A stretch of 64,000 nucleotides of DNA from the NCBI GenBank assembly GCA_033762295.1, contig JANRLW010000043.1, positions 32,001 through 96,000 on the forward strand, given 5' to 3'. The DNA comes from Capsulimonadales bacterium (GTDB lineage Bacteria > Armatimonadota > Armatimonadia > Armatimonadales > Armatimonadaceae). Positions 8,148 to 41,552 of the stretch are shown here, piece by piece. Under the pieces are notes generated by a model. It saw nothing but the letters and a program-made list of their open reading frames with translations. It searched no databases and was not told where the DNA came from. A program made the translations under genes and the position numbers. Numbering within the stretch: position 1 is the stretch's first letter; every line of letters begins with the position of its first letter.

Positions 8148-8198
8148 CCTAAAAACCCTCCCGAACCGAAAAGTCCAGGTAATTACGTTAAATTTTCG

Positions 8199-9155: not shown

Positions 9156-9320
9156 GGTAGATGAGACCTCCGCCTTTCCATGGTTACAGTTCGCCGTTCC
9201 GTTCCGTTGAGGTTCCGATTTCGTCGTGTTTCCCACCTTTCAACCATAATGACCGTATTTAAGCGAGATTCGTTACCACGCTTACCTGCAAAAAATTGTA
9301 CACCGGTAAGTTTTCACAGG

Positions 9321-12893: not shown

Positions 12894-14021
12894 ATGAGGA
12901 CCGATACGAACCGGACGGGGCGGCAGGGGATCATCGCCGCCTATCGGGATTTTCTCCCGGACATTACCGCCGAATCGCCGGTGGTGACCCTGTGCGAGGG
13001 CGGCACGCCGTTGATCGAAGCGCCGCGTCTGGCGACCGCGCTCGAACTGCCGGCGAATTTTCGCCTTTACCTGAAGTTCGAGGGAATGAACCCGACCGGT
13101 TCCTTCAAGGATCGCGGCATGACGATGGCGGTCAGCAAAGCGGTCGAGGAAGGTCGCACCGTCGTCATGTGCGCGTCCACGGGAAATACGTCGGCGGCGG
13201 CGGCGGCGTACGCGGCGCGGGCGGGTATCGAATGTGTCGTTCTTCTGCCCCAGGGCGAGGTCGCGCTGGGGAAGCTCTCGCAGGCCCTCATGCATGGCGC
13301 ACGCGTCCTGGCGATCCGGGGCAACTTCGATGAGGCGCTGTGCCTGGTACGTGAGATCTGCGCCACGGAACCGATCGCTCTTGTCAATTCCGTCAATCCG
13401 GTGCGGATCGAGGGCCAGAAGACGGCCGCATTCGAGATTGTCGATGAACTGGGCGACGCCCCGCATTTTCATGCGATGCCGGTCGGAAACGCGGGGAACA
13501 TCACGGCCTACTGGAAAGGATTCAAGGAGTTTTTCGCCCGGGGCCTGGCCACGCGGACCCCGCGCCTCCTCGGGTTTCAGGCCGCCGGCGCCGCGCCGCT
13601 GGTCGATGGCGCGCCGGTTCCCTTTCCGAACACCGTGGCGACTGCCATTCGTATCGGCAATCCGGCCTCCTGGCAGGGCGCTCTGACGGCGCGTGACGAA
13701 TCCGGCGGTCTCATCGGCAAGGTGACCGATGAGGAGATTCTGGCGGCGTACCGGACGGTCGCCGCCACCGAAGGCGTCTTCGCCGAGCCGGCGTGCGCCG
13801 CGCCGCTGGCCGGAATAAAAGCGCTCCAACGGGATGGCTTTTTCACCGAAAACAGTACCGGGGATGATCTTGTACGTATCACGGTCACGTTGACCGGCCA
13901 CGGACTGAAAGATCCCGACCGCGCCCTGCGTACCGCCGTACGGGGAATACAAGAGGTCGATGCCGACCGGGACGCGATTTTGCGAGCCGTCGGTGAAAAA
14001 TCGATCGACCTCGGTCGGTGA
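12894..14021 (+). CDS. thrC: Threonine synthase (start could be 12813)
   Basis: [32 protein letters not shown]. Confidence 0.93.
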
Positions 14022-14055
14022 TAAAATCAACACATCCGGTCGACACGGAAACGTT

Positions 14056-14083
14056 CGAACTTTGTCCCCTCCCACCTCGTAAT
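14056..14083 (+). promoter_or_regulatory. Putative ECF-sigma promoter upstream of signal peptidase
   Basis: CGAAC-N17-CGTAAT; the same pattern occurs at four other loci. Confidence 0.5.
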
Positions 14084-14135
14084 TAAAGGTGGAGATTATG
14101 CACGACGCATATAAATTGGAAGGGGTTCAGTATCC

Positions 14136-14717
14136 ATGTCTACCGGGTCGATCACAGGGAATTCGCGGTTGAATGTGCATCCGACGTTGGAAGCGCGTCT
14201 CGCCGAACTGCGGGAAGAGGAAGCGCGTAAGACGCGTCATCGAGAACAGGTGGTTCGGGAACGGCGGTTCCTGATTCCGGTGTTTCTGTTCGTGCTTTTC
14301 CTGTTTCCGAATCTTGGGACGGTATCGGTGGTCGGAACGTCGATGCATCCGACGCTGGAGACGGGCGACCGATTGCTCATGCTGAAAACCCATCAGATCT
14401 TCTCTCCGATCCGTCCGGGAGATATCGTGGTGGTTCGGAAGGCGGACGGGTCGTATAAGGGCGAAGACCTGATCAAGCGGGTAATCTGCGTAAAAGACAA
14501 ACAGGGAAATCTCCTCTGGGCCCCGTCGGTGAAGACATCCGAAGGGACGATCGACCCGAAACGTCTGTTCCCGCATTATGTGTTGCGCCTGCGCCCGTTC
14601 CCGAAGGGTTCCGTGCTGGTTCTGGGAGATAACATTTTCCATTCCACCGATTCCCGTGATCCGGAGGTCGGCGCGATATCCGCCGCCGAAATCGAAGGAA
14701 AGGTGCTGTTCCGTTAA
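14136..14717 (+). CDS. lepB: Signal peptidase I (S26)
   Basis: GTSMHPTL (Ser), LIKRV (Lys), GDN...STDSR. Confidence 0.88.
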   Translation: MSTGSITGNSRLNVHPTLEARLAELREEEARKTRHREQVVRERRFLIPVFLFVLFLFPNLGTVSVVGTSMHPTLETGDRLLMLKTHQIFSPIRPGDIVVVRKADGSYKGEDLIKRVICVKDKQGNLLWAPSVKTSEGTIDPKRLFPHYVLRLRPFPKGSVLVLGDNIFHSTDSRDPEVGAISAAEIEGKVLFR

Positions 14718-14771
14718 ACGCCGGAGGGAACGAAACTCCGCCGGGCGGATCGCACGACAGGTGAGCCGTTC

Positions 14772-15743
14772 ATGAGAGATTCGTTACCTGATTCGACCGA
14801 CGTCGTCCTGACGACGGAGATTCCCGGACTGACGCGGGTCGCTTCCGGGAAAGTGCGGGATATTTACGAGGTCGGTGAGGATGCGCTCCTGTTGGTGGCG
14901 ACCGACCGCATCTCCGCGTTCGATGTGGTGATGCGGCAGGGAATCCCGGATAAAGGGCGCGTCCTCACGCAGTTATCGGTTTTCTGGTTCGAAACCCTGG
15001 CCGATGTTCTGCCGAACCATCTGATCACGGCCGAGGACGACCTGGTTTTCGCCCGTCTTTCCGCGGCGGGCGCGGAGATGACCGACGGACGGCGGCGTTC
15101 GCTGAGCGGACGTTGCCTGCTCTGTCGCCGGACACGCCCTTTGCCGATCGAAGCCGTCGTTCGCGGCTACCTTTCCGGCTCGGCCTGGAAGGAGTACCGA
15201 CTGACACCGGCCTGGGATGGCGTGGTGCAACTCTGGGGCGTGGCCGTACCCTCCGGACTCCTCGAATCCGAACGGCTTCCTCAGCCGATTTTCACCCCCA
15301 GTACGAAGGCCATCGCCGGACATGACCAGCCCATTCCCGTCGCCGAAATCGAGTCCTACATCGGAGCCTACGCGACACCGGTCCGCGACGCCGCCGTGGA
15401 ACTCTATCAGGCCGCGCGTGAATACGCGGAGAATCGGGGAATCCTTCTCGCCGATACCAAGTTCGAGTTCGGGACGCTCGAAAACGGGTCGCTTCTCCTG
15501 ATCGACGAAGCGCTGACTCCGGACTCCTCCCGGTTCTGGGCGGCGGAGTCCTATCGCCCCGGTGGCCCGCAGCCGTCCTTCGACAAGCAGTTCGTTCGTG
15601 ATTTTCTGGAGACGGTTCCGGGCTGGAACAAACAGGCTCCGGCGCCGGACCTGCCGGAGGACATCGTCGCGAAGACGACCGAAAAGTACCGCGAAGCGTA
15701 TCGTCGCCTTACCGGACGGGAACTGGCGGGAGCGACCGCCTGA
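14772..15743 (+). CDS. purC: SAICAR synthetase
   Basis: GKVRDIY, TDRISAFD, DTKFEFG, DEALTPDSSRFW, FDKQFVRD. Confidence 0.96.
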   Translation: MRDSLPDSTDVVLTTEIPGLTRVASGKVRDIYEVGEDALLLVATDRISAFDVVMRQGIPDKGRVLTQLSVFWFETLADVLPNHLITAEDDLVFARLSAAGAEMTDGRRRSLSGRCLLCRRTRPLPIEAVVRGYLSGSAWKEYRLTPAWDGVVQLWGVAVPSGLLESERLPQPIFTPSTKAIAGHDQPIPVAEIESYIGAYATPVRDAAVELYQAAREYAENRGILLADTKFEFGTLENGSLLLIDEALTPDSSRFWAAESYRPGGPQPSFDKQFVRDFLETVPGWNKQAPAPDLPEDIVAKTTEKYREAYRRLTGRELAGATA

Positions 15744-26790: not shown

Positions 26791-28194
26791 TCAGGGACGG
26801 CGAGTTTCCCAAGCGCCGATGTCCGGACCCCGGCCCTGCGTGCGATTTTTGCTCCCGAAGTCGGTCTTCAGGAGAACCCGGCGACTGCCGACGTCGACGC
26901 CCGGTCCCGAAGGACGACAGCGGAAATCCGGTGAATCGGCGTCCGGAGAGAGAAACTGCGGGTTTCCGAATCGATTTTGCCAGCTGGCTGCCTTGTCCGC
27001 ACCGGTTCCAAGGTCCGCCTCCCCGCCGAAAAACAGGTTCGCCTCGAAACGAACGGAATCCGGAGCCGGGGCGACCGCTTTCCCGTTATCGAAGGAACGA
27101 GCGCAAAGCGCACCGGGCTGACCGCCGCTCACCGCAATATTGTTGAGAAAACGGACGCGCGCCGATTGACCGACACTCAGTTCCGCGCTCGGCCCGGAAC
27201 CGTTCGGAAACGGGACGCGCAGGTCACCGTCCTGCAGATTTCGTACGCAGGTATTGTTGACGACATCGACGTTATTGCTCTTGAAAACATGGATTCCGCG
27301 ACCGCCGTTTCGATAGACCAGATTATTGCCGATCAGGGTACGCGGTGATTCGTAGCTCGTATCGATGATGATTCCGTTGCCGTCCGTATGGAACCCGTTG
27401 CCGGTCCGCGACGGTGGCGTGTACCGGGAACGGTTCTCGTAAATCCGGTTGCCGACGACGACGTTATGGTAGCCCCGGTCGCTCTCCTGTCGGTTGCGAA
27501 GACCCAGGAGGGTGATTCCGCTCTGATCGTATTTCGAACCCCAGGCACACCGATATACCGCGTTGCCGTTGATGGTCACATAGTCGCTCCCTTCCGTCAC
27601 CTCTTGCGTCGCGTCCGAGACCGTTCCGACGGCGGCGATGCCCGCGCCTCCCATGTTTCGAACGGTGCAGTCGAGAATTCGAACATGGTGTGCGGTCGGA
27701 TGAAGAACGATGCCGTTGCATTCGGCGGAGGCGAGCGATCCGTCGACGATCAGGCCGATTACCTGTACATGATGGACCGGTGAAAATACACCGGTCTTCC
27801 GTTCATCGTCCCAACGATCCATGGCGGGAATGCCGATCACTTCCCAGGCATTCGGATCGGTGACTTGCAGGATCGGTCGTTCGCCGGGATAGCCGCGAAG
27901 CGTGATACCGGATTTATTGAGGCCGAACGGACCGGGGTAGAGGCCGCCGCGAAGGACGATGGTGTCGCCGGTTCCGTACTCCTCGCCCGAACGGGCAAGG
28001 TCGAGGGCGCGGCGGATGGTGCGAAGCGGTGTGGCGGGATCGCCCGCCGTAAACGCATTCCGGGAGTCATCCCCGTCGGGAGCGACGTAGAGAGTGCCTG
28101 CCGACGCGGATACGGCGCAAAGTAGCAGGGAGGCGAGGAGCAGAGCGGTCGACGACGGGAAACCAAAAAGCGAGCGGAGGTTCGGGATCGGCAT
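26791..28194 (-). CDS. Secreted right-handed parallel beta-helix protein
   Basis: Signal peptide; YVAPDGDD, PLRTI, GDTIVLRGGLY, TDGNGIIID, N-rich coils, PDIGAWE. Confidence 0.8.
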   Translation of the reverse strand: MPIPNLRSLFGFPSSTALLLASLLLCAVSASAGTLYVAPDGDDSRNAFTAGDPATPLRTIRRALDLARSGEEYGTGDTIVLRGGLYPGPFGLNKSGITLRGYPGERPILQVTDPNAWEVIGIPAMDRWDDERKTGVFSPVHHVQVIGLIVDGSLASAECNGIVLHPTAHHVRILDCTVRNMGGAGIAAVGTVSDATQEVTEGSDYVTINGNAVYRCAWGSKYDQSGITLLGLRNRQESDRGYHNVVVGNRIYENRSRYTPPSRTGNGFHTDGNGIIIDTSYESPRTLIGNNLVYRNGGRGIHVFKSNNVDVVNNTCVRNLQDGDLRVPFPNGSGPSAELSVGQSARVRFLNNIAVSGGQPGALCARSFDNGKAVAPAPDSVRFEANLFFGGEADLGTGADKAASWQNRFGNPQFLSPDADSPDFRCRPSGPGVDVGSRRVLLKTDFGSKNRTQGRGPDIGAWETRRP

Positions 28195-28243
28195 AACGCT
28201 TTGTCCTTCCCCTCCGCCCCTGCGGATTCCTGCCCGAAAGCCG

Positions 28244-29860
28244 TTACGGGCTGACGACGACGAAGCGTCCCTCGCCCTGTCGCAGGACATAAAGGGCGAC
28301 GCTGCGGTTATCGGCAGGCTGGTCTTTGAGAATACGTTCCACCGCCGCCTTCAACTCATCCGGCGAATCGATCGGCGACTGGCCGACCCGCTGGATGACA
28401 TCGCCCCGTCGGATTCCGGCCGCCTGTGCGGCGGAGTTGGGCTGAACCTCGGCCACGACCACCCCGCGCGTACCCGCCGGAACGCGCAGCTGTCCGGCCA
28501 GGTCCGGGGTCAGCGGCGCGATCCGGATTCCAAGCGAGGTCCCGGAGGACTTTTCGCCGTCACCGTTCAACGGCAACGAGGGGGTGCCGGGTTCCTTGCG
28601 CTCCTCGACCGTCGCTTCAAGGGTTCGCTTCGCCCCCCCGCGCAGAATATCCAGTTTGATGGTGGTACCCGCGCGGGTCGCCGCCACCAGGCGCTGTAAC
28701 TCGGACGAGGTCGCGATCGCCCGTCCGTTGATGCCGGTAATTACGTCGCCCGGTTCCAACCCGGCGCGCGATGCCGGGCTATTCGGCTCGACCGATTCCA
28801 CCAGAGCGCCGGTCGTCGTCGGTGCCAGCCCGAAGGCGCGGGCCTGCTCGCTCACGTTGGCGATCGCAATTCCAAGGCGCGAACGACGTACCCGACCTTC
28901 CTTCAGAAGGGTGTCCGCGATCTCGCGGGCCGTGGAAATGGGAATCGCGAACCCGATACCGACGTTACCGCCCGTTCGGCTGTAGATCGCGTTGTTGACC
29001 CCGATGACCCGACCGTAGATATCGAGAAGCGGGCCGCCGGAGTTGCCCGGATTGATGGAGGCGTCCGTCTGCAGGTACTGCCCCGGACCGTTCTCGGATA
29101 GCGGCACCTCGCGACCCTTGGCGGAGATGACCCCGACCGTCATGGTGTGATCCAGTCCGAACGGATTGCCGAGAGCGATCGCCCAATCGCCGACATTCAC
29201 CCGATCCGAATCTCCGAGGGTAACGGTCGGAAGACCGTTTGCCGGAATCTTCACCACGGCAACATCGGTGACGGCGTCCTCACCGACGACCTTCGCATTC
29301 TTAAACACCTGACCGTCCGCCAGTTTGACGGTGACGGTGTCGGCGCCCCGAACGACATGGGCATTGGTGATGATGACCCCGTCCTGTCGGATGATGAAGC
29401 CGGACCCGAGGCCCGAACGAACCATTCGACCGCCCTGGCGGCCGGACGGCGGCGCGGACGGCTCGGCGTTCGGGACAACCTCCTCCGGAACGTTATCGCC
29501 GAAGAACCGGCGGAAAAGTTCGTCCATATCGGGTCCGCCGGGTCCGCCAGGTCCGCCGAACGGCGTCATGCCGCGTCGAGGCGTCGGAATGCTTTCCATG
29601 GTCGTGATCGTGACCACCGCCGGTTCGACCGAGCGGGCGACCTGATTGAAGGCCGCCTGCATGTTGGCCGCCTCACGGATCGCTTCCGTCGTCGCGACCG
29701 CCGCCGGTCGGGCGGGAGCGGCCGCCGCGACCCGGGCCGACTGTCCGGTCTGCGCTTCGGAGGGACGTATGTAGCCGGGCGCTAACAGGGCAGCGATCCC
29801 GATCGCTCCGGCCACGGTCAGTTTTGCAGAGTGCTTCTTGAGAAACAAATTCGATCTCAT
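28244..29860 (-). CDS. htrA: HtrA/DegP (Do family) serine protease with two PDZ domains
   Basis: TNAHVV, TDVAVVK, TDASINPGNSGGPL; two PDZ domains; AAGGAG upstream of the ATG at 29860. Confidence 0.93.
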   Translation of the reverse strand: MRSNLFLKKHSAKLTVAGAIGIAALLAPGYIRPSEAQTGQSARVAAAAPARPAAVATTEAIREAANMQAAFNQVARSVEPAVVTITTMESIPTPRRGMTPFGGPGGPGGPDMDELFRRFFGDNVPEEVVPNAEPSAPPSGRQGGRMVRSGLGSGFIIRQDGVIITNAHVVRGADTVTVKLADGQVFKNAKVVGEDAVTDVAVVKIPANGLPTVTLGDSDRVNVGDWAIALGNPFGLDHTMTVGVISAKGREVPLSENGPGQYLQTDASINPGNSGGPLLDIYGRVIGVNNAIYSRTGGNVGIGFAIPISTAREIADTLLKEGRVRRSRLGIAIANVSEQARAFGLAPTTTGALVESVEPNSPASRAGLEPGDVITGINGRAIATSSELQRLVAATRAGTTIKLDILRGGAKRTLEATVEERKEPGTPSLPLNGDGEKSSGTSLGIRIAPLTPDLAGQLRVPAGTRGVVVAEVQPNSAAQAAGIRRGDVIQRVGQSPIDSPDELKAAVERILKDQPADNRSVALYVLRQGEGRFVVVSP

Positions 29861-29902
29861 CTTGTACAAGGCTCCTTACGGAAAGTCCTATTTGACAGAT
29901 TC

Positions 29903-29931
29903 ATTACGAAGGATCGGCCGGATCGTGTTCC
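29903..29931 (-). promoter_or_regulatory. Putative ECF-sigma promoter upstream of htrA
   Basis: GGAAC-N18-CGTAAT on the minus strand. Confidence 0.5.
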
Positions 29932-30029
29932 GACCGGAGGTTCACGGAGGAAAACAACCGAACCGATTCCTGCGCGGAATCGTCTAATTCGGTATTCCCG
30001 TTCCCCATCGTCTCCGGAGGGCCTGTAAC

Positions 30030-31613
30030 GTGTCCCAGGTACTGTTGTGGGTTTCGCTCGTCCTCGGCGTGGTCGCCGTGCTGCTTCGTTTCCTGCCTTT
30101 GCCACCCGTTCCGGGTCGACCGGAAGGCGAATCCGTCGTTCGGTCGACCGAAGAGGGGGAAGCCCATCCGGTGGTCCGGCGGATCGGGTTCGCGGCCCCG
30201 TTTCTCGGTTTTGCGCTGACCTTGCCGGTAGGCGGCGTCTTCTCCTCCGGACAGCAGTTCGGGATCGGTTTTCTCGCGGGAGGCGTGTCGGCTCTGCTGG
30301 CCGATTTTTTGGTTCGGACATCGAAATCGCCTCGCGAACCGGAAGCGATCCCCCGGACCGCCGCGAACGGACTCGCCATCGCCGTCGTAGCCGCCGTCCT
30401 CCTCTTTTTGCCGGCGTCCCGCCTCGATGCGCTTCTCGGCGTCGCGATCGGCTGGCTGTGCCCGGCGTTTGCCTTTCTGCTCGCCCTGCCCGCAACCCGG
30501 CGCGCCGCCGCCCCCGGACGTGGGACGGTGGCGGCGGTGGGTATGGCCGTCACCCTCTGCGCGGGCGCGGCGCTGTGCCTGTACCGGGACCCCATTACCT
30601 CGCAGTTCCCCAAACTCTCCTGGACCGCGCTTCTCCTTGCCTTCGCCGCGCTGGGAACGCTGGTCAACGCAGGGACGGCGCGGTTCGAACCCTTTCTGCG
30701 GACCGGTATCCGTCGACTGCTGCCGATAGCGGTTCTGGCGGCGGGGGCGGGAATCGCCCTGTTCCAGGCCGATCTCAAACTGGTGGACGATCCGCGAACG
30801 GCCTGGATCGGTGTCGGTGGCCTTTTGCTTCTCCCGGTCGTTCTCGCCGCCCTGCGCGAGGCGGCGCGACGCGCTCCGACGGAGGATCCGGGAACGATCC
30901 GTATGTTTCTGCCGGCCGTTCTGCTGACCACCGGATTTCTCGCGGCGGTTCAGACGCTGCAGGGGACGGGCGCGGCGGTGTTCACGGTCGCTCTCTGGCT
31001 GGCCCTGCCCCCGCTTCTGCCCTTTGCCCGCGAGGAGAGCGGCGAGGGGGAACCCGTCGAAAACGACCTGTCCTTATCTCTCCTGAACCTTCTGCTGTTC
31101 GGTACGACGCTGCTGCTCTGGCGGCTGTTCGTCACCCGCTGGTCCGGCGAACTGCACGGCGTTTCCCTGACCGACCAGTACGCCCTTTTCGGCCTGATTC
31201 TGGGAGCGGCGATCCCCGATCTTCTGTCTTCCGTTCCGTCCGGTTGGTCCGGCGGAAAAACGGGCGGGACGGTGCGGGGGATCGCAGCTCTGACGGTCAC
31301 CGCTCTGCTGGCGCTGGCCGTGCCTGCTCTGCCCCTGGTACTGTTCGGTCCGAAAAGCGTGGTGGCGGTGCTGATCGGTCTCGGGCTGGGTGTCGGACTT
31401 CGAACGGCACGCCACCCGTCGCTGTTCCCGGCGTTAATCGCGCTGGCGGTAACCCTGGTGCTGACCCAGTGGACGGGAACCGTGCTGCCGGAGCAGGCCT
31501 GGTCACGGGTCGATAAGGTCCGGGTACTGATCGGCCTCATGGCGGTCCTGGTGCCGCTGACGGTTTTCTCCGATCGCTTCATGGTCCTTCTCGGGCGGAG
31601 GGAGACACGATGA
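30030..31613 (+). CDS. Polytopic membrane protein (about 16-17 TM), apparent degenerate membrane-pyrophosphatase fold
   Basis: GGAGG SD; very hydrophobic; colinear helix similarity to HppA (see findings); stop overlaps the next ATG (ATGA). Confidence 0.75.
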   Translation: MSQVLLWVSLVLGVVAVLLRFLPLPPVPGRPEGESVVRSTEEGEAHPVVRRIGFAAPFLGFALTLPVGGVFSSGQQFGIGFLAGGVSALLADFLVRTSKSPREPEAIPRTAANGLAIAVVAAVLLFLPASRLDALLGVAIGWLCPAFAFLLALPATRRAAAPGRGTVAAVGMAVTLCAGAALCLYRDPITSQFPKLSWTALLLAFAALGTLVNAGTARFEPFLRTGIRRLLPIAVLAAGAGIALFQADLKLVDDPRTAWIGVGGLLLLPVVLAALREAARRAPTEDPGTIRMFLPAVLLTTGFLAAVQTLQGTGAAVFTVALWLALPPLLPFAREESGEGEPVENDLSLSLLNLLLFGTTLLLWRLFVTRWSGELHGVSLTDQYALFGLILGAAIPDLLSSVPSGWSGGKTGGTVRGIAALTVTALLALAVPALPLVLFGPKSVVAVLIGLGLGVGLRTARHPSLFPALIALAVTLVLTQWTGTVLPEQAWSRVDKVRVLIGLMAVLVPLTVFSDRFMVLLGRRETR

Positions 31614-34600
31614 AAGGCCGTTTGTTCCAATCGCTCGCCTCCGCCCTGGTCGTGACGCTGGTCGGAATCGGATGGGCGTTCCTGATCCTCGCGGAGACGC
31701 CGCGCGGGCAGGTCGAGGGGACGGTGCGCCTCACCGACGCCGGCAACCGTCCGCTTTCCCGGTGCGATGTCTACCTGACGCCGATCGATGAGGAAGGCAA
31801 CCGGGATAACCGCGACAATGATCCGCGCGAACGCCGACACACGGTCACGGACGAGCAGGGCGTGTTTCGCCTTCGCGCCGTTCCCGCCGGTAGATACGCG
31901 CTTTCGGCATCCGCCCGCTGGCATCAAAGCGAGCGAGATATCCGGATCGACGTTGAAGAGGCGAGAACGGCCCGCGGAACGATCGACCTGAAGCGGAGCG
32001 AACCGGATCTGAGCGTGGGCGACCATCAGGCGACGTTCGCGACCACGGAGAAACCGTTCCTGCCGGTACGTGGCTATTTCTCCGGGTCATCCGGGCGGTC
32101 GCGCCCATCGCTCCGCCTCCGGGTCTTCAGGACGCGCCTGTCGGACGTTCTGAAGCGCGGCGACTCGGCGAGCGCTCTCGATGACCTGCGCTACACCTAC
32201 CAGGGGCCGACGCCGCGATTGCCAAAAGCGCTGCTGGCGAAGGGTAGTCCGGATGCACCCCGACTCGTTGCCGACGTCACCCGGCCGGTGACCGGGATCG
32301 ACCGGGAAGGCTTTTTCGTCAACCGCGTTCCGATCGCGGCGGCCGTCGGCAAACCGGGACTCTACCTGGTCGAGTTCGCTCACGGCAAGCACTCCTCCGC
32401 CTCCTATGTTCTCGTTTCCGATCTCGCTCTGGTCGTGAAAAACGCCCCCGGTTCGATCCATGCGTTCGCCGCCCACATCCGGAAAGGAACGCCGATCGGA
32501 GGGGCCGTCCTTCGCTATTTCACCGGAGGACGCTCCGTCGCCTCGACACGGACGGACCGAAACGGCCTGGGGACCCTGACGCGACCGACGGCCCCTCCGC
32601 GCCCGGCAGGGGGCGCCGATGCCGGGGGAAACGTCGCCCCGAACCTGACCGTCGCGTCGTACGGGGACGACGAAGCCGTCGTGCGTTACGGTGGGGGGTG
32701 GTGGGGCGAGCAAACGGAACCCATCTACGCCGTCCATACTGTGACCGACCGCACGATCTACCGGCCCGGCGACCGGATTTCGTACAAGGGAATCGTCCGA
32801 CGGCGAAACGGCGCGAACACGTACCTCGTTCCGGCCTCGCTTCCTGTCAGTATCGAGGTGCGGGATGCGAACGGGGGACTGTTGGTCAAAGAGAGCAAGA
32901 CGACGAACGATGCCGGGGTCTATGATGGGACGATCGAGACCAGCCCCGAAGTCGCGACCGGTTCCTACACCCTGGTCGCCCGCATCGGAGAGGAGAGGCA
33001 TACCGCCGACGTGTCCGTCGCCTCCTACCGGAAACCGGAGTTCGTCGTAAAGGTCACCGCCGGGAAAGCCCGTTATCTCCGGGGCGAACCGGTGACGATG
33101 ACAATGGCGGCGTCGTACTACTTCGGTGCGCCTGTCGCCGGAGCGAAGGTCCGCTACTATGTCACCCGAAATCCCGACTGGAGCGTCGATTACGGTGGCT
33201 CGGACGAGGAGGAGGCGGGCGAATTTCGTCCCGGTCTCTTCGGGTCGTTTCCCGGCGATTTCCATGGGGATACGGTGGCGGACGGCGAGGTGCGTCTGGA
33301 CGAAAACGGGCAGGCGGTCATTACGGTCGATTCGTCGAAACGAGCGAACGAACCATCGTCGCCGGAGCGACCGGACGACGAGTTCCTTCCTCAGGTGGAA
33401 ACGTACACTCTGACCGCGTGGGTGGAGGATTCATCGCAACGGTCGGTGGAGGGGCAGGGGCAGGTACGGGTCGCGGCGGGCGATTTGACCCTGTCCGTGG
33501 TGCCCGAAGGGTACGTCGCCATGCCCGGAAAACCGTCGCAGGTCTTCGTCACCGTGCGGGATGCGGACGGGAAACCGGTTGCCGGTCAAACGGTCGAACT
33601 GCGAACGGCCTATGAGGTCCGGGATTCGGAGGGGGAGCGGACTCGACCGACCCCCCTGGGAGCCGCGCAGACGGCGACGACCGGGGCCGATGGCCGCGCG
33701 CTTCTGACCGTCACGCCCACGAAGTCCGGGGAGATCGTCCTGACGGCGTCGGTTCGCGACGCGGGCGGTCGTACCGTTTCGACACGGGGCGGCCTCTGGG
33801 CCGTCGGTGACCGGGATACCGAACTCGATACGGATTACGGCGACCTTGCCCTGCTGACCGATCGGCGGCGTTACGAACCGGGTGACACGGCACGGGTGCT
33901 GGTGAATACGTCGCGGACCGGGCAAACGGTCTGGCTCAGCGTCGAAGGCGACCGGGTCTACCGTTCGTTCGCCCTGCCGATTACCCGTCGAAGTACCGTG
34001 ATCGAACTGCCGATAGACCCCGAATGGGGGCCGAATGTGACGCTGGTTGCCTGTTATGTGCGCGACAAGAAGTTCGCTTCGAGCGAAACGCCGCTCCGGG
34101 TCGCCCTGAAAGCGAAGGAAGTGGCGGTGACCGTCCGACCGGTCGGCGGCGACCGCTATCAGCCGGGCGATAATGTGACGTACGAAATCCGCACGCTCGA
34201 CGCCGACCGGGGGCGACCGGTCGCCGCGAATGTCGCGCTGTCGGTCGTGGATGAGTCCGTTTTCGCCCTGCGCCCCGACGATCCCAAAGCGTTGCGTCGA
34301 ACCTTCTATCCGCCGCGAACCAACCGGGTCAGCACGGCGTTTTCGTTCGCCGTCGAGTATCTGGGCGATGTCAGCAAGGCGGAACCGGAAATCAGAGCAC
34401 GGAAACGGTTCCGCGATACCGCCTTCTGGGCTCCGGAAGTACGCACCGACGCGCAGGGTCGAGCGCGGGTGACCGTGAACCTGCCGGAGAACCTGACGAC
34501 CTGGCGGGCGACTGCGAACGCGGTCACCGCCGATACCGCCGTCGGTTACGGACTCAGCAAGGTGCTCTCCTCCCGTCCGTTTTTCGTACGACTGGAGACG

Positions 34601-36538
34601 CCCCGCTTCCTGACCGGGGGCGACCGGTCGCGCCTGATGGCTCTGGTGCATAACGAAACGGGAGAAAAGCAGGAGGCCCAGGTGCGGCTGGTCGCCTCCG
34701 GACTCGTGGCCGCCGGGGACGACCGCCGGAAAATCACCATACCCGCCGGAGGCGTCGGGACCGTCGAGTGGGCGGTCACGGTTCCACCGGACGCCGGACC
34801 GACACCGGTGCGCGTGACGGTCCGGACCGTGGACGGGAACGGTCGGTCCGGATTCACCGACGGTATCGAGCAGGTTCTGCCGATCCGGCCCTACGGAAAG
34901 ACGGTCCTGACGACCTTTGCCGGAACGGGCAGCGACGGACCGGTCGACCAGACCGTCACGCTCGACCCGGCGGCGATCCCCTCGCAGACCCGATTGACGG
35001 TGCGGGTCACCCCGTCCCTGTCCGCCGCTCTGGTCGGCAGCCTCGACTACCTGATCGGCTTCCCCTACGGCTGCACGGAACAGACGATGAGCCGCTTCTA
35101 TCCGGACCTCCTGATCGAACGGCTCGGACTGCTGACGGACCCGAGAAGAAAGGCGGACGTGCCTCGCATGGTCCGGGACGGCGTCGCCCGCCTCGCCCGT
35201 CTGCAACACACGGACACGGGCGGCTGGGGCTGGTGGGAGCGGGATGCCGACGATCCGTTTATGACCGCGTATGTCATTCTCGGATTGGCGACCGCGCGGG
35301 CGCAAGGCTACGAGGTTGAACCCTCCCTGCTGAGCCGGGGGATCGAAGCCGCGGTCAAATTGGCGGGAACCGCGCCGGTGAAAGCACGTCCGTTCCTTCT
35401 CTACGCTCTGGCGGAGGCAGGATACGACGATTCCGGAAACGGTATTCTGCATACCCCGTTCCGGGGCGGGAAACGCCTTGACCCCGCCCGACTGGACAGC
35501 GTTTCGCTGGCCTATCTTGTTCTGCTGGGCCGACGGCTGAACGCCGACGTGCGACCATTCCTGACCGAACTGGAACGACGTGAGGTGGTTCAGGGGCGCC
35601 TGATTCACTGGAAGGGGGCGCGGGAAGGCGACGAAGACACGGATACGAGCGACCGGATGGCGACCGCCCTGGCATTTCGCGTCCTTCTGGCAGAAAATCC
35701 GAACGACACGCGCCTGCCGGGAATTCTCCGCTGGCTGATGCTGAGCCGGACCGACAGCTATTTCGGGAACACTCGCGACACGTCGTGGGTGTTGTCCGCC
35801 CTCTGCGATTACCTGCGTGTGCGCCCTGAAGAGCGAACCGTCGCTTTCGCTCCCGTGCAGGTATTGGTCAACGGTCGCCTGCAGGCGACCCTCGACGCGA
35901 GGACGACCGACGAGCGCGACCCGGAAACCGTGGTGGACGTTCCGGCCGACGTCCTGCGGCCGGGCCGAAATACGGTCCGGTTCGTCCGGTCGACCGGCGG
36001 GCCGACCCTGTTTTACTCCGGCGCTCTGCGACAGACGCTGCGCGTTCCCGACGCTGCCGACCTTCCGGCGGTCACCGACCATGGAATCACTGTGCGGCGG
36101 GAGACGTTGCGCGTTCAACCACGGAAAACAAACGGCGACCTCTGGCGATTGGTGACCGAACCGGTGGCGGACGGCAGGTTTCGGCAGGGCGACCGGCTCC
36201 GGGTACGCCTGACCGTCACCGCCGACCGGGAGATTCGTTACCTGATGCTGGAGGATCGCTTTCCGGCGGGCGCGGAAGTGACGGAGCGGGGGACGGCGGA
36301 CGAGGACGTAAACTACCGGGAAAGCGGGTCGTTCTTCTCCTACGATCAGGTCGATGTCCGGGACGATCGAATCGCCTTCTTCATCAAGCGCCTGCCCAGG
36401 GGAACCCAGGTGCTGGAATATAACCTGCGGGCACAGACGCCGGGAATCTACCATGTGCTTCCGACCGAAGCGCAGGCGATGTACGATGCCACGGCGCACG
36501 GTTCGTCGTCGGGCCGTCGTCTGGAGGTTCGTCCTTGA
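31610..36538 (+). CDS. Bacterial alpha-2-macroglobulin with intact thioester
   Basis: TDRTIYRPGD, YRKPEF, VVDESVF, FRDTAFW, LPENLTTWR, FPYGCTEQ (CxEQ), GGWGWW, DVRDDRIAFF; N-terminal TM and carboxypeptidase-regulatory-like domain. Confidence 0.93.
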   Translation: MKGRLFQSLASALVVTLVGIGWAFLILAETPRGQVEGTVRLTDAGNRPLSRCDVYLTPIDEEGNRDNRDNDPRERRHTVTDEQGVFRLRAVPAGRYALSASARWHQSERDIRIDVEEARTARGTIDLKRSEPDLSVGDHQATFATTEKPFLPVRGYFSGSSGRSRPSLRLRVFRTRLSDVLKRGDSASALDDLRYTYQGPTPRLPKALLAKGSPDAPRLVADVTRPVTGIDREGFFVNRVPIAAAVGKPGLYLVEFAHGKHSSASYVLVSDLALVVKNAPGSIHAFAAHIRKGTPIGGAVLRYFTGGRSVASTRTDRNGLGTLTRPTAPPRPAGGADAGGNVAPNLTVASYGDDEAVVRYGGGWWGEQTEPIYAVHTVTDRTIYRPGDRISYKGIVRRRNGANTYLVPASLPVSIEVRDANGGLLVKESKTTNDAGVYDGTIETSPEVATGSYTLVARIGEERHTADVSVASYRKPEFVVKVTAGKARYLRGEPVTMTMAASYYFGAPVAGAKVRYYVTRNPDWSVDYGGSDEEEAGEFRPGLFGSFPGDFHGDTVADGEVRLDENGQAVITVDSSKRANEPSSPERPDDEFLPQVETYTLTAWVEDSSQRSVEGQGQVRVAAGDLTLSVVPEGYVAMPGKPSQVFVTVRDADGKPVAGQTVELRTAYEVRDSEGERTRPTPLGAAQTATTGADGRALLTVTPTKSGEIVLTASVRDAGGRTVSTRGGLWAVGDRDTELDTDYGDLALLTDRRRYEPGDTARVLVNTSRTGQTVWLSVEGDRVYRSFALPITRRSTVIELPIDPEWGPNVTLVACYVRDKKFASSETPLRVALKAKEVAVTVRPVGGDRYQPGDNVTYEIRTLDADRGRPVAANVALSVVDESVFALRPDDPKALRRTFYPPRTNRVSTAFSFAVEYLGDVSKAEPEIRARKRFRDTAFWAPEVRTDAQGRARVTVNLPENLTTWRATANAVTADTAVGYGLSKVLSSRPFFVRLETPRFLTGGDRSRLMALVHNETGEKQEAQVRLVASGLVAAGDDRRKITIPAGGVGTVEWAVTVPPDAGPTPVRVTVRTVDGNGRSGFTDGIEQVLPIRPYGKTVLTTFAGTGSDGPVDQTVTLDPAAIPSQTRLTVRVTPSLSAALVGSLDYLIGFPYGCTEQTMSRFYPDLLIERLGLLTDPRRKADVPRMVRDGVARLARLQHTDTGGWGWWERDADDPFMTAYVILGLATARAQGYEVEPSLLSRGIEAAVKLAGTAPVKARPFLLYALAEAGYDDSGNGILHTPFRGGKRLDPARLDSVSLAYLVLLGRRLNADVRPFLTELERREVVQGRLIHWKGAREGDEDTDTSDRMATALAFRVLLAENPNDTRLPGILRWLMLSRTDSYFGNTRDTSWVLSALCDYLRVRPEERTVAFAPVQVLVNGRLQATLDARTTDERDPETVVDVPADVLRPGRNTVRFVRSTGGPTLFYSGALRQTLRVPDAADLPAVTDHGITVRRETLRVQPRKTNGDLWRLVTEPVADGRFRQGDRLRVRLTVTADREIRYLMLEDRFPAGAEVTERGTADEDVNYRESGSFFSYDQVDVRDDRIAFFIKRLPRGTQVLEYNLRAQTPGIYHVLPTEAQAMYDATAHGSSSGRRLEVRP

Positions 36539-37326
36539 ACCGGAACGTTGGCCGGTTCCCCGGACTGTTGGCATTGGGTCTGATGCCGTTCGGCCTCGTG
36601 CTTCTGGTCGTCGCCGCCCTCGCCGCGTTGTCGCCTCCCGAAAGCCGGATGGCCGGTTTCGCCACCTCGCTTTCCGGGCGGACGCCCGCGCAGCGACACA
36701 ACGCAAGGCTGGCGGCACGCTCCCTCAACGGAGCCCGAATTCCCGCCGGGGGACTCTTCTCCTTCAACGGCACGGTGCAGACCTGGTCTCTCGATCGGGG
36801 CTATGTTCGCGCGCCGGTGTCCTACGACGGTTCGCTCGTTCCGGCGTTCGGCGGTGGGGTCTGTCAGACCTCGACCGCCCTGTATAATGCCGCCTTACTC
36901 GCCGGAATGGCGATCACCGAACGGCATCACCATGTCTTCGCCCCGCACTATGTCCCGCCCGGACGCGACGCGGCGGTCGCATACCCGAATATCGATCTTC
37001 GCTTCCGAAACCCGTACCCGTTCCCCGTTCGCCTCCGTTCGTCGGTCGACGGCGATATTCTCCGGGTCGAAATGTGGGGGCGGACCGATACGCGCACGGA
37101 ATATCAACTGGTCACCCGTGTCCTGTCGGCGTCGCCCCCCGAAACCGTACGCCGTACCGTTCCGCGCAAAGCCGGGAAACCGGCCGTCGCCCGGTACGCC
37201 GGGATCGGCGGCTTTCGCGTCGTTACCTACCGGGTGGCCCGGAAAAACGGACGGGAAGTGCGGCGCGAACGTCTCTCGGATGACGCCTATCCTTCCATGC
37301 CCAATATCCTGGCCTTCGCGGAATGA
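36535..37326 (+). CDS. VanW family protein
   Basis: FSFNGTV, GGGVCQTSTALYNAAL, ERHHH, GRDAAV, DLRFRN; C-terminal G5-like segment. Confidence 0.88.
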   Translation: MNRNVGRFPGLLALGLMPFGLVLLVVAALAALSPPESRMAGFATSLSGRTPAQRHNARLAARSLNGARIPAGGLFSFNGTVQTWSLDRGYVRAPVSYDGSLVPAFGGGVCQTSTALYNAALLAGMAITERHHHVFAPHYVPPGRDAAVAYPNIDLRFRNPYPFPVRLRSSVDGDILRVEMWGRTDTRTEYQLVTRVLSASPPETVRRTVPRKAGKPAVARYAGIGGFRVVTYRVARKNGREVRRERLSDDAYPSMPNILAFAE

Positions 37327-37328
37327 CC

Positions 37329-37356
37329 GGAACACGTAGACGCGCGACGACGTCTT
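37329..37356 (+). promoter_or_regulatory. Putative ECF-sigma promoter
   Basis: GGAAC-N17-CGTCTT. Confidence 0.45.
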
Positions 37357-37425
37357 GTGCGTATTCTCCGGAGGATGCGAATCGGGAAACGCCCCGATTC
37401 CCTCTCCTGATTCGGAAGGCGGCGC

Positions 37426-38754
37426 ATGAAGCACTTCGATTACCTCCTCATCGGCGGCGGCATCGCGTCCGTCGCGGCGGCGCAAAGCATCCGCGAACGG
37501 GACGGCGGCAGCATTCTCATTCTCAAGGATGAACCGCGACCGCCCTACGATCATCCGCCGCTATCGAAGGATTACCTGAAACGCCGGGAGATCGGGGAGG
37601 GCGAAGCATACAGCAAAGAGGAGACGTTCTACCGGCAGCGCGGGATCGATCTGCGAACCGGCGTCCGTGTCACGGCGATCGACACCTCCGCCCAGACCGT
37701 AACCACCGACCGGGACGAACGTTTGCATTACGGAAAACTCCTGCTGGCGACCGGGTCCTCCGCTCGAAGACTCGAGGTGCCGGGGGCCCATGCGCCGAAC
37801 GTTTTCACCCTTCGAACGCTGGACGACTCCCTCGCCCTGCGTCAGGCGTTCGAACCCGCGCAGCGTGTGCTGGTCGTCGGTGCCGGTTACATCGGCATGG
37901 AGGTGGCGGCGGCGGCGGCGCAGCGGGGGTTACAGGTCACCGTCGTCGACCCGGAACCGTACCCGTTCCGGAAATTCGCCAGCGAAACCTTCGGAAACTT
38001 CATCAAGAGGTATTTCACGCGGAAGGGCGTCCGGTTTCTGCTCGGGAACGAGGTCGCCTGTATCGATTGCGATCCGGAGACCGGAATGGCCCATTCGGTC
38101 TGCCTGAAAAGCGGACAACCGGTGCCGACCGACGTCGTCGTGACCGGCGTCGGTGCGAAATTGAATCTGGACCTGGCGATCTCCGCCGGACTGGAGACCG
38201 ATGAAACGGAAGGGGTGCTCGCCGACGAGTTCCTGCGGACGTCCGCGCCGAACGTCTATGTCGCCGGGGATATCGCCTATTTCAAGGACATCATTCTCGG
38301 AAAACGCTGGCATGCCGAGCATCACCTGAACGCCAAATGGCAGGGAGAGGCGGTCGGGCGCAATCTGGCGGGAGAGGTCGAACCGTACAATCGGGTCGCC
38401 TACTTCTTTTCCGATCTTTTCGATATCCATATGATCCTTCGGGGTGACCCCAAAGGCGGCGAAGGTCGCGCGCTTCTCGGAGATATCGAGGGGGCGGAAT
38501 TTATCGAACTGTACGGTGACGAGGAGGATCGGCTGACGATGGGGGTTGCGGTCAGCCGTGACGAAACGAAACTCGGGGGGATTTCGGACACGCTGGATCG
38601 GATGATTCGGGAACGGGTGTCGATCCCGCAGGCGGTCTCGCGTCTCAGCGAAAGCGAGCGCACCTCGTTTATCGGTCTGCCGTCGATGGCGGCGGTCCTG
38701 GGAATGATTGCCGGGAGCGAAGCCCTGCACTTCCTGCCCGCCTGGAATCGTTAG
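37426..38754 (+). CDS. FAD/NAD(P)-dependent oxidoreductase (ferredoxin reductase-like)
   Basis: GGGIAS, PPLSK, LLLATG, GAGYIGME, VYVAGD, YFFSD. Confidence 0.9.
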   Translation: MKHFDYLLIGGGIASVAAAQSIRERDGGSILILKDEPRPPYDHPPLSKDYLKRREIGEGEAYSKEETFYRQRGIDLRTGVRVTAIDTSAQTVTTDRDERLHYGKLLLATGSSARRLEVPGAHAPNVFTLRTLDDSLALRQAFEPAQRVLVVGAGYIGMEVAAAAAQRGLQVTVVDPEPYPFRKFASETFGNFIKRYFTRKGVRFLLGNEVACIDCDPETGMAHSVCLKSGQPVPTDVVVTGVGAKLNLDLAISAGLETDETEGVLADEFLRTSAPNVYVAGDIAYFKDIILGKRWHAEHHLNAKWQGEAVGRNLAGEVEPYNRVAYFFSDLFDIHMILRGDPKGGEGRALLGDIEGAEFIELYGDEEDRLTMGVAVSRDETKLGGISDTLDRMIRERVSIPQAVSRLSESERTSFIGLPSMAAVLGMIAGSEALHFLPAWNR

Positions 38755-38951
38755 GCGCCCCTTTACGGATCGTCGTCAAATACGCCGTTGGTGGGACGAC
38801 GACCGTTTTCCACGGAAATACGATAGAGGCAGGAGCGTTCGTGAGCCATCGGAATCGCGACGATGCGACCGCCGCAGCTTGAGAACCAAATGCCGGTCGC
38901 CAGCCCCGCTGTTGGCAGCGGTCGTTGACGGCTTCTCTACGGAGGACCGTG

Positions 38952-41552
38952 ATGAACCTCTCTATCGTACGCGAGTTCCTGACCAAACGGAGGAAACTCG
39001 CCTTCCTGCTGATTGCCGGATCCGTCTTTTTCCTGGCCAGCGCCCTGTCCGCCGTCTGGGCGCAGGAGGTACGCCCGCTGACGGGACTGCCCGCCGGGGA
39101 ACCCGGATTCCGCCCGTTCGAATTTTTGACCTCACCTCGCTACACGGACGCCGAACGATTCGGCCTGTTCGCCGCCCTTGGAATCGCCCTTGCCGGCCTC
39201 GGGTACGCCCTCCTGCTCATGCGGCAGGTCAGTCGCGCCGACCGGGGGACGCCGAAGATGCAGGAGATTGCCGCGGCCGTTCGGGAAGGTGCGGACGCGT
39301 ATCTTCGAAAACAGTTTTCCATTGTGGCGATCCTGATCGCCGTGCTGGTCGTCGTTCTTTTCCTCGCCAAGGCGCTCACGTCCCCGCTCGGATTTAACGA
39401 TCCGTTCGCCCTCGGACGCGCCGGGGCGTTCCTGGTCGGTGCGCTGTTTTCCGGCACCGTCGGATTCGTCGGCATGCGGCTGGCGACCACGGGGAACCTC
39501 CGCGTGGCCGCCGCCGCGCCGGTCGGGTTCGGGAAAGCCCTGATGCTCGGTTACCGGACCGGAACCGTCACCGGTATGCTGACGGACGGCCTCGGTCTCC
39601 TCGGAGGCACCCTGATCTTCATGATCTACGGAGAACACGCCTATGAGGCGCTCCTCGGCTTCGGATTCGGCGGCACACTGCTGGCCTTGTTCATGCGGGT
39701 CGGCGGCGGAATCTACACCAAAGCGGCCGATGTCGGCGCGGACCTCGTCGGCAAAATCGAGCAGGATATTCCCGAGGACGACCCCCGTAACGCCGCGACC
39801 ATCGCCGATAACGTCGGCGACAACGTCGGCGACTGCGCGGGAATGGCCGCCGATATCTTCGAATCGTACGAAGTCACCATCGTCGCCGCCATGATCCTGG
39901 GCTGGGTCGCCTTCGGACACCAGGGCGTGCTCTTCCCGATCCTCGTGCGCGCCATCGGTGTGGTCGCCTCGATCGTGTCCACCTATCTCGTCCGTGCGGG
40001 GGATCGTGGAAACGTCGCCGAGGCGATGAAATCGATCAACTTCGGGTTCTGGGTCGGTTCGGTGATTTCCGTGGTCGGATTCCTGACCCTCGGGTTCTTC
40101 TACCTGCGCTTTGACGCCGACCCGACGCGACCGTGGATCCATCCCGGACTCGACATGCGCCCGGCCTGGGCCTGTCTGATCGGCGTCCTGCTCTGCGTCG
40201 CCCTGAACCGCAGCACGGAGTACTTCACCGGCACCGAGTTCAATCCGGTGAAAGGACTGCAACGCGCCTGCGGCACCGGGCATGCCACCAACATCATCGA
40301 AGGGTTCGCGGTCGGCATGGAATCGGCGGTCTTCGCCGGTATCATCCTCTGCACCGCGATCATCGCCTCCGTGCTGGTGTATACCGGAACGAACGCTATC
40401 GCCATCGCTTACGGTGTCGCCATGTGCGGTATCGGCATGCTCACCCTGACCGGCAACACCATTTCGATGGACGTCTTCGGTCCGGTGGCGGACAATGCGA
40501 ACGGCATCGGCGAAATGGGCTATGAACGAAACCGGATGGGGGTCGAGAAGTATCAGGAATCCCGTCAGGTGCTGGCGGACCTGGACGCGGTCGGCAACAC
40601 CACCAAGGCGGTCACCAAGGGAGTCGCCATCGGTTCGGCCGTCATCGCGGCGGTCTCGCTCTACGCCTCCTTCATCACGGTGATCGGGTCCGGCGGCGGT
40701 TCGGAGAAGGAAGCGTTACCGATCCCGCTGTTCGACCGGGTCGCCGGCTTACTGACGGTGTCCGAACCGAAACTGCTGGTCGGTATGCTGATCGGCGGCT
40801 CGGTCCCGATGCTCTTCTCGGCGATGACGATCCGTGCGGTCGGGCGTGCGGCCTACCTGATCGTCCATGAATGCCGCGTCCAGTTCCGTGATGCCGCCAT
40901 CTGGAACGGAACCAGGAAGCCCGATTACGGACGTGTCGTCCGCATCTGCACCGAAGCGGCCCAGAAGGAACTCGTCGGACCGGCGCTCCTGGCCGTCTTC
41001 TCACCCGTGTTGATCGGCTTCCTGCTCGGACCGATCGGTCTGGCCGGATTCCTGGGCGGTTCGATCGTCGTCGGACAGTTGATCGCCTCCTTCATGTGCA
41101 ACTCCGGAGGAGCGTGGGACAACGCCAAAAAGACCATCGAAGACGAAACGCGCGACCATGCCGCCAATACCGGCAAAGGATCGGAACGGCATAAAGCCAG
41201 CGTCACCGGCGATACGGTGGGCGATCCGCTGAAGGACACGGCCGGACCGGCGATCAACCCGCTGCTCAAGGTCATGAACATGGTCGCCATCCTGACGGTC
41301 CCGATGATGATCGGGTACGATTCGAAGGTGGTGGACAACGTCCGTCAGGCGGCGGCGGCGAGCAACTACAAACTGCCGTCCACCTTCCAGGCGACCGGTA
41401 TCGACGCTCTCTGGCTGATTGCGGTCGGAATCGCGTCCGCCGCCCTGATCTGGGCGTACGTCCAGTCGAAACGCCACATCGGAATCGTCGCCGAGGTGCT
41501 GCCGGCGACCAGCGCGATCCCCGGCGACGACCGGGAATTCGCCGCCCGCTGA
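38952..41552 (+). CDS. hppA: Membrane-bound ion-translocating pyrophosphatase, K+-independent signature
   Basis: KAADVGADLVGK, EDDPRN, DNVGDNVGD, GNTTKA, GGAWDNAKK, GDTVGDPLKD. Confidence 0.95.
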   Translation: MNLSIVREFLTKRRKLAFLLIAGSVFFLASALSAVWAQEVRPLTGLPAGEPGFRPFEFLTSPRYTDAERFGLFAALGIALAGLGYALLLMRQVSRADRGTPKMQEIAAAVREGADAYLRKQFSIVAILIAVLVVVLFLAKALTSPLGFNDPFALGRAGAFLVGALFSGTVGFVGMRLATTGNLRVAAAAPVGFGKALMLGYRTGTVTGMLTDGLGLLGGTLIFMIYGEHAYEALLGFGFGGTLLALFMRVGGGIYTKAADVGADLVGKIEQDIPEDDPRNAATIADNVGDNVGDCAGMAADIFESYEVTIVAAMILGWVAFGHQGVLFPILVRAIGVVASIVSTYLVRAGDRGNVAEAMKSINFGFWVGSVISVVGFLTLGFFYLRFDADPTRPWIHPGLDMRPAWACLIGVLLCVALNRSTEYFTGTEFNPVKGLQRACGTGHATNIIEGFAVGMESAVFAGIILCTAIIASVLVYTGTNAIAIAYGVAMCGIGMLTLTGNTISMDVFGPVADNANGIGEMGYERNRMGVEKYQESRQVLADLDAVGNTTKAVTKGVAIGSAVIAAVSLYASFITVIGSGGGSEKEALPIPLFDRVAGLLTVSEPKLLVGMLIGGSVPMLFSAMTIRAVGRAAYLIVHECRVQFRDAAIWNGTRKPDYGRVVRICTEAAQKELVGPALLAVFSPVLIGFLLGPIGLAGFLGGSIVVGQLIASFMCNSGGAWDNAKKTIEDETRDHAANTGKGSERHKASVTGDTVGDPLKDTAGPAINPLLKVMNMVAILTVPMMIGYDSKVVDNVRQAAAASNYKLPSTFQATGIDALWLIAVGIASAALIWAYVQSKRHIGIVAEVLPATSAIPGDDREFAAR

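Follow-up and report, generated by a model that had tools for sequence, protein, structure and literature searches.

What function remains to a membrane protein that resembles an ion pump stripped of its catalytic loops, and why would such a protein be encoded at the head of an envelope operon? The question is raised by gene X (30030..31613, forward strand), an open reading frame (ORF) of 527 amino acids with a GTG start. It lies in a 64,000-nucleotide stretch of the genome of a Capsulimonadales bacterium (Armatimonadota; contig JANRLW010000043.1, positions 32,001 to 96,000), hereafter the window, in whose numbering positions are given. Our analysis identifies X as a diverged, catalytically dead relative of the membrane-bound pyrophosphatases (mPPases), with which it shares ancestry. 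As for its role, we put at roughly 60% the probability that X is the integral-membrane subunit of a periplasmic protease-trap and wall re-cross-linking module, together with the alpha-2-macroglobulin (A2M) and the VanW-domain protein encoded directly downstream.

Relationship of gene X to membrane-bound pyrophosphatases

An earlier note, made from the letters of the window, had proposed an mPPase fold for X after pairing its hydrophobic segments by eye with those of HppA, a genuine membrane pyrophosphatase encoded in the same window (38952..41552, forward strand, 866 amino acids; PF03030, E 2e-231, 770 bits; sodium-translocating pyrophosphatase in NCBIfam) that lies outside the module and serves here as comparator. 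The proposal holds when whole families are compared. A profile of 82 X-family sequences was aligned with hhalign to an mPPase profile of 53 sequences (25, plus 28 translated from other loci) that share 40-76% identity with the HppA of the window. The local alignment reached 95.3% probability (E 2.1e-8, score 76.5, 387 columns) and the global one 97.9% (E 3.7e-12, 510 columns), whereas reversed-sequence controls gave P 0.14-0.17 and, among 68 further polytopic ORFs from this genome, the highest score with the mPPase profile was 34.2 (10% probability). The strongest local match falls at the start of transmembrane helix (TM) 13, where alignments and hhalign place the LTDQYALFG...G...P motif of X (residues 380-400; 31167..31229, forward strand); this motif is also the best conserved block of the X family. 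All eight motif pairs of the earlier note are present and colinear, and five are fully in register in the independent hhalign alignment, as are two more except for a gap inside the pair. The eighth pair was assigned to the right helix, with a register that is off by 2-5 residues.

The predicted structure agrees with the profile result. An AlphaFold2 model of X built from 82 diverse family sequences is confident (predicted local distance difference test, pLDDT, 91.1; predicted template modeling score 0.94) and has 17 helices, 16 in the core and one at the C-terminus; hydropathy gives about 15-17 hydrophobic segments. Compared with the PDB by Foldseek, the model matches mPPases alone through rank 36, those of Thermotoga maritima, Vigna radiata and Pyrobaculum aerophilum among them, with E values of 8.2e-6 to 1.7e-3 and template modeling scores by query of 0.46-0.64; beyond rank 36 come transporters of the major facilitator superfamily, at 0.19 or lower. 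The 16 core helices lie in two concentric rings, with TM5, 6, 11, 12, 15 and 16 forming the inner ring as in mPPases, so that in the model X keeps the 16-helix two-ring mPPase membrane core and adds a seventeenth helix.

At about 13% identity to mPPases, X escapes simpler searches. BLASTP of X against the window's HppA has a best E of 1.7, and hmmsearch between the X family and mPPases gave no significant match in either direction. Aligned by hhalign to the single HppA sequence, X-family profiles of 14 and 82 sequences reached probabilities of 0.33% and 0.6%, with HppA ranked only fifth alongside the genome's 68 other polytopic ORFs, and a narrow profile built from 25 HppA sequences of at least 69% identity gave 7.3% (P 0.0048), which is no more than suggestive. 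No Pfam or NCBIfam family matches X at E up to 1. In the comparison with Pfam that the earlier note had proposed, PF03030 is not matched by any of 14 X-family members at E up to 10. A search of PDB sequences with both X-family profiles gave nothing relevant, the only match being PsaI (E 0.53), and an ESM Atlas lookup for X yielded no usable lead (feature score 0.78 at best; pLDDT 0.41 for the model in the Atlas itself).

These null results bear on the explanation that the mPPase resemblance is an artifact of chance helix matching and of a bias of AlphaFold toward memorized folds. That pairwise and hidden Markov model (HMM) searches are all non-significant speaks for it, as do the pLDDT of the Atlas model and that of a poor AlphaFold2 model from 14 sequences (55.6), which was left out of the fold search. 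Against this, the model became confident only once the alignment was deeper, an indication of co-variation; significance is reached in the independent profile-profile test and not in its reversed controls; and the profile alignment reproduces the register found by eye. We therefore regard an artifact as very unlikely. The earlier note's caution about chance matches between hydrophobic helices stands for the simple searches and is overturned by the controlled profile-profile comparison. The resemblance exceeds chance, at the level of profile and structure only.

Loss of the catalytic apparatus

The segments that carry the catalytic residues of mPPases had been described as replaced in X by short linkers, and the global hhalign alignment, with mapping of columns, bears this out with loops of 8, 11 and 4 residues. 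Loop 5-6 is an 8-residue linker (residues 153-160; 30486..30509, forward strand) at the site of the mPPase catalytic loop of about 50 residues (K5.58, D5.61, D5.65, E5.76, D5.77, D6.35-6.43), and it is poorly conserved (mean information 0.78). Loop 11-12 is a short, acidic and variable linker of 11 residues (334-344; 31029..31061, forward strand) at the site of D11.57 and the GNTT-K12.50 segment. Loop 15-16 is reduced to a 4-residue turn (residues 462-465; 31413..31424, forward strand) where mPPases have the DNAKK and GDTVGDPLKD segments (D15.61, K15.64, D16.31-16.39).

The loss extends to every charged position that is nearly invariant in mPPases. Among 35 such columns, at least 95% conserved in the 53 mPPases, the X family retains none, and 24 align to gaps, at the deletions in loops 5-6, 11-12 and 15-16, in agreement with the non-enzymatic state that the earlier note had proposed. 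The lost columns match, by spacing, the hydrolytic-center, coupling-funnel and ion-gate residues that the available part of a review (PMC6882861) names. In the hydrolytic center, D5.61, D5.65, E5.76, D5.77, D6.35, D6.39, D6.43, D11.57, D15.61, D16.31, D16.35 and D16.39, together with K5.58, K15.64 and K16.38, are replaced by gaps or by unconserved, non-identical residues. In the funnel and gate, R5.50 corresponds to L150, D11.50 to A333 and K16.50 to L465, and D6.50, E6.53 and K12.50 fall in gaps; TM6 of X contains no acidic residue. The inner-ring helices of X are 20-26 residues long, an ordinary membrane length, and the hydrophilic cytoplasmic extension of about 20 Å that long inner-ring helices and loops form in mPPases is missing from X. 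Because the catalytic, funnel and gate residues are lost, X should be unable to hydrolyze pyrophosphate or to pump ions as mPPases do, as judged from its sequence. With these residues lost, and fold and ancestry kept, X falls outside the mPPase family in functional terms.

Topology and the conserved periplasmic face

The count and topology of transmembrane segments, which the earlier note had asked for, fit an N-terminus in the periplasm and, with 17 helices, a C-terminus in the cytoplasm. When topology is assigned by homology with the N-terminus out, lysine and arginine number 14.2 per sequence in the predicted cytoplasmic loops vs. 2.2 in the outer loops, a positive-inside bias that supports the mPPase topology for X. 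Conservation in X is lowest in the cytoplasmic loops and higher in the outer ones, and it is concentrated in helix-packing glycines and on the periplasmic side. The conserved residues include P66, F71 and G74 in loop 2-3, D133 in TM5, R186 at the end of TM6, W198, G312 and G314, R365 and R370 at the end of TM12, D382 and the LTDQYALFG block in TM13, Q480 and W481 at the end of TM16, and R493 in TM17. The polar ones are located where inner-ring helices 5, 6, 12 and 16, and also helices 13 and 17, reach the periplasm, and several of them sit on the inner-ring helices that line the exit channel in mPPases. We infer from this arrangement that they may together form one pocket.

A passive channel or secondary transporter could also make use of such a structure. 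X would then carry an ion or small solute through the inner-ring conduit and be co-regulated with A2M and VanW while remaining physically separate from them. The six inner-ring helices are kept, conserved polar residues occupy the periplasmic mouth of the ring, and the many conserved glycines and prolines could permit helix movements. The middle of the membrane does not fit this reading: no ionizable residue there is conserved at 80% or more in the X family, no conserved polar residue is found there either, gaps or leucine stand in place of D6.50, E6.53 and K16.50 of the mPPase gate, and the cytoplasmic loops that would close the ring are short and unconserved. We consider a channel or transporter unlikely, and rank it first among the rival explanations.

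Operon organization and distribution

Gene X is followed on the same strand by a gene for a thioester A2M that is type I-like (31610..36538, 1642 amino acids; Pfam bMG10, A2M_BRD, A2M, MG2 and TED), with GCTEQ at residues 1154-1158 (35069-35083) and an N-terminal membrane anchor, and then, again on the forward strand, by a gene for a VanW-domain protein (36535..37326, 263 amino acids; Pfam VanW, E 7e-43), also with an N-terminal membrane anchor. VanW domains are described as L,D-transpeptidases with a Cys-His-Asp triad in the available part of PMC11348318; C110 (36862-36864), H133 and D145 of the window's VanW are invariant among 19 orthologues and may correspond to the published triad. The stop and start codons of X and A2M, and of A2M and VanW, overlap by 4 bp. 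A Shine-Dalgarno-like GGAGG (30016..30020, forward strand), read from the sequence, precedes the GTG start of X by 9 nt, and similar GGAGG motifs precede the starts of A2M and VanW; the N-terminal pattern of X is common to its homologues at their starts. A promoter and terminator scan of 29700-39000 found one promoter-like site vs. 0.9 expected.

The order X-A2M-VanW is conserved across Armatimonadota, in keeping with the placement of X in an envelope operon by the earlier note, which had suggested that homologues be surveyed for linkage to A2M and VanW. In the first set of 14 related loci, two are cut before the A2M position, and A2M lies directly downstream of X in all 12 with enough sequence; VanW then follows in 9 of the 10 that are long enough, one locus being without VanW in the 4.9 kb after A2M and two more being cut. 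The second set holds 30 loci with flanks of about 1.5 kb, including the window's own and at least nine duplicates of the first set. A2M follows X in 28 of its 29 long-enough loci, one other locus is cut, and the exception is a split gene with only 0.8 kb downstream. A distant set of 20 matches (E 1e-4 to 1e-41) contains 19 loci with an X-family member, which adjoins A2M in 15; VanW is present too in 13 of those 15. The link between X and A2M is thus strong and not obligatory, and VanW is the less constant member of the trio. X adjoins A2M with no VanW within about 4 kb downstream at L082 and L083 (genus g3) and at L009.

Eight A2M loci were taken from lineages without a detected X. In two of them, L102 and L103, a clear X lies upstream of A2M (E 2e-28 and 1.9e-18), although the genome profile search had scored their genomes (G002 and G063) as X-negative. 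In a third, L098 (genome G153), a 568-amino-acid ORF with about 14 helices (13228-14931, reverse strand) comes just behind A2M-VanW in convergent orientation and counts as a very divergent X-family member (hmmsearch E 0.015; hhalign 90%, E 1.5e-6), so the X family is wider than HMM searches show. At L096 (genome G195), polytopic ORFs flank an A2M homologue on both sides (50-1405 and 7808-9178, reverse strand) with no VanW detected; by hhalign they are unrelated to X or to mPPases, and the arrangement may be another variant of the module. At L087 (7807-10546; genome G119), an X-like gene away from A2M lies directly downstream of a gene for the exo-beta-N-acetylmuramidase NamZ, a single case in which the neighbor is a possible link to peptidoglycan.

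The family itself is sizeable and confined, as far as organisms are known, to one phylum. A word-indexed search supplied 13 relatives (a set of 14 sequences with X), and an HMM scan of 1.84 billion representative proteins returned 413 matches at E <= 1e-3, 149 of them at E <= 1e-30. Among the best 150 of the 413, lengths are mostly 450-680 amino acids, and shorter members cover the profile partly. The 14 X loci from species genomes are all from Armatimonadota (Armatimonadaceae, Chthonomonadaceae/-ales or Abditibacteriaceae). Ten X-family clusters that were looked up contain four named members, all "hypothetical protein", and two with an organism given, Armatimonadota and Chthonomonadales. PADLOC found nothing for the X locus, and AMMECR1 (PF01871) went undetected in this genome, which is 94.5% complete. 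Among sampled Armatimonadota genomes, a profile search found an X-family match in 118 of 301 (93 of the 238 of high quality), or 78 of 159 genera; these counts are a floor because the first-look filter misses divergent X members.

Confinement to one phylum is the basis for a further reading, in which X works apart from A2M and VanW and owes its place beside them to inherited gene order. All loci come from a single phylum and so are not independent observations, and four homologues are unlinked to A2M. The order nevertheless holds out to members with E values of 1e-9 to 1e-30 in many families of the phylum, the stop and start codons overlap, and the genes that flank the trio in the window (HtrA and HppA) are not conserved with it. 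We regard independent function as improbable, and rank it third among the rivals.

Proposed function

We return to the reading in which X is the membrane subunit of a module with A2M and VanW. As first gene of the operon, X would be co-translated with a membrane-anchored thioester A2M and a VanW L,D-transpeptidase. It has lost the cytoplasmic extensions of its inner-ring helices, and with them the center of hydrolysis, the coupling funnel and the ion gate, and through its periplasmic face it would arrange or control A2M and VanW, its two single-pass partners, or else offer them a ligand. Physical association with A2M and VanW, and action as a scaffold, are what we infer for X.

Several observations weigh against this reading. 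Four of the 19 distant X members are away from any A2M (three belong to family f31, the fourth to f10), and of the eight A2M loci described above for lineages that had shown no X, five have no X-like neighbor. A2M and VanW each have an anchor of their own, so that pure anchoring by X, of the kind described for MagB (see below), is not required. The clustering of conserved polar residues is deduced from helix positions and mPPase architecture, not read from coordinates. Finally, the kinship of X with mPPases is undetected by BLAST, HMM-sequence and Pfam searches and depends on one model and one profile-profile tool.

Alternatively, X could recognize, as receptor or enzyme, an anionic envelope molecule that is linked to lipid (undecaprenyl pyrophosphate, lipid II or a phospholipid), binding it at the outer leaflet with a conserved Arg/Asp cluster where the exit channel used to be. 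Such a protein might display what X has at its periplasmic helix ends, contrary to the positive-inside rule, namely four conserved arginines and two aspartates; the neighboring VanW acts on peptidoglycan (PMC11348318, available part), and an X homologue adjoins the NamZ exo-muramidase gene in one unlinked locus. This last link is a single case, the Arg/Asp cluster in space is likewise deduced rather than taken from coordinates, X has no recognizable catalytic motif, and structure comparisons of its model matched none of the PAP2, BacA, MurJ and SEDS folds. A lipid binder or enzyme of this kind is doubtful in our estimation, and stands second among the rivals.

Elements of this alternative can be combined with the preferred module in a more speculative proposal. 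X may represent the first non-catalytic branch of the mPPase superfamily, one in which the ion-exit mouth has been rebuilt as a periplasmic Arg/Asp pocket that binds a lipid-linked, anionic wall precursor or the anchors of its partners, and so couples the protease trap to 3-3 cross-linking by VanW. We offer this full scheme tentatively, as an outside chance.

Comparison with known systems and evolutionary origin

Among characterized proteins, the mPPases (HppA, PF03030) of Thermotoga maritima, Vigna radiata and Pyrobaculum aerophilum share with X profile homology and a topology predicted to be N-terminus out, and motifs in TM13, TM5 and TM3 are still recognizable in X. They are about 200-340 residues longer than X, and the extra C-terminal helix is a feature of X. 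In contrast to mPPases, X has its conservation shifted to the periplasmic face and is part of an A2M-VanW operon.

For the operon, the nearest precedents are bacterial A2M systems. Type I thioester A2M and PBP1c have been proposed to form a system that traps proteases and repairs the wall (PMC5764988, available part). As described there, ECAM/YfhM-pbpC of E. coli and the A2M of Salmonella are like the present case in that an inner-membrane A2M with a CXEQ motif is encoded beside a peptidoglycan cross-linking enzyme. The A2M of the window has the corresponding features, namely a CXEQ thioester, a bait region (A2M_BRD), TED and an N-terminal hydrophobic anchor. It differs in that its anchor is a helix, whereas the type I A2Ms of E. 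coli and Salmonella have a lipobox, and in that the gene adjacent to it is not pbpC but VanW, from a different transpeptidase family. The E. coli pair also has no counterpart of the third, polytopic partner X. A functional precedent for such a partner is MagB of the Pseudomonas aeruginosa magABCDEF operon, a membrane protein that type II A2M needs for membrane localization and stability according to the available part of the same paper. Compared by description, MagB crosses the membrane with one predicted helix, and the A2M that it binds lacks thioester and anchor, whereas X has 17 predicted helices and an A2M that anchors itself.

The earlier note knew of no described family like X, and our search of the literature agrees: in full-text literature, with most subscription journals outside it, we found no description of a non-catalytic relative of mPPases and none of a link between A2M and VanW. 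The available part of the review PMC6882861 describes only pyrophosphate-driven ion pumps with the mPPase fold. The model would be the first structural assignment for the X family (413 representative clusters).

The simplest history would be that X arose by reductive evolution from a duplicate of an mPPase, because X is seen in Armatimonadota only, while mPPases are widespread. The control genomes of our PF03030 survey span bacteria and archaea, and within the phylum 106 of 121 sampled genomes contain PF03030. This genome has a genuine HppA as well; since the two coexist, X is an addition to HppA and not a replacement for it.

If these assignments are right, X shows that a bare 16-helix scaffold can fold and stay under selection without hydrolytic center, funnel or gate. 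It would provide a minimal standard by which to judge the membrane core's own contribution, and a case study of the passage from a primary pump to a pseudoenzyme. X would also add a third, previously unannotated component to the bacterial "periplasmic immunity" module, and with a thioester A2M paired with VanW instead of PBP1c, the trap-and-repair logic becomes testable in a new setting.

Other neighboring genes

Upstream of X by 160 bp and divergent from the operon lies a gene for a serine protease of the DegP/HtrA family with two PDZ domains (28244-29869, reverse strand), an envelope-stress protease beside a protease-trap operon. HtrA is not a conserved neighbor of X in either locus set, and a link between the two was dropped on that ground. 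A link to the nearby HppA gene was likewise dropped: HppA has no tblastn match (E<=1e-5) in any of the 14 first-set loci, and as query against the second set (flanks of about 1.5 kb) and the distant set it gave none among the matches listed. Between VanW and HppA, 99 bp after the former, is a gene for a ferredoxin-reductase-like pyridine-nucleotide-disulphide oxidoreductase (37426-38754, forward strand), which has no match in the 14 first-set loci.

In the HppA of the window, about 80-90 residues precede the Pfam domain as an N-terminal extension. The long HppA ORF (875 amino acids) begins with a TTG at 38925, upstream of the start in the database record at 38952, and contains an extra hydrophobic segment at residues 23-47. 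On the far side of X, adjoining HtrA, is a gene for a right-handed beta-helix (NosD-like) protein of 499 amino acids (26791-28290, reverse strand) with a weak C-terminal choice-of-anchor Q match.

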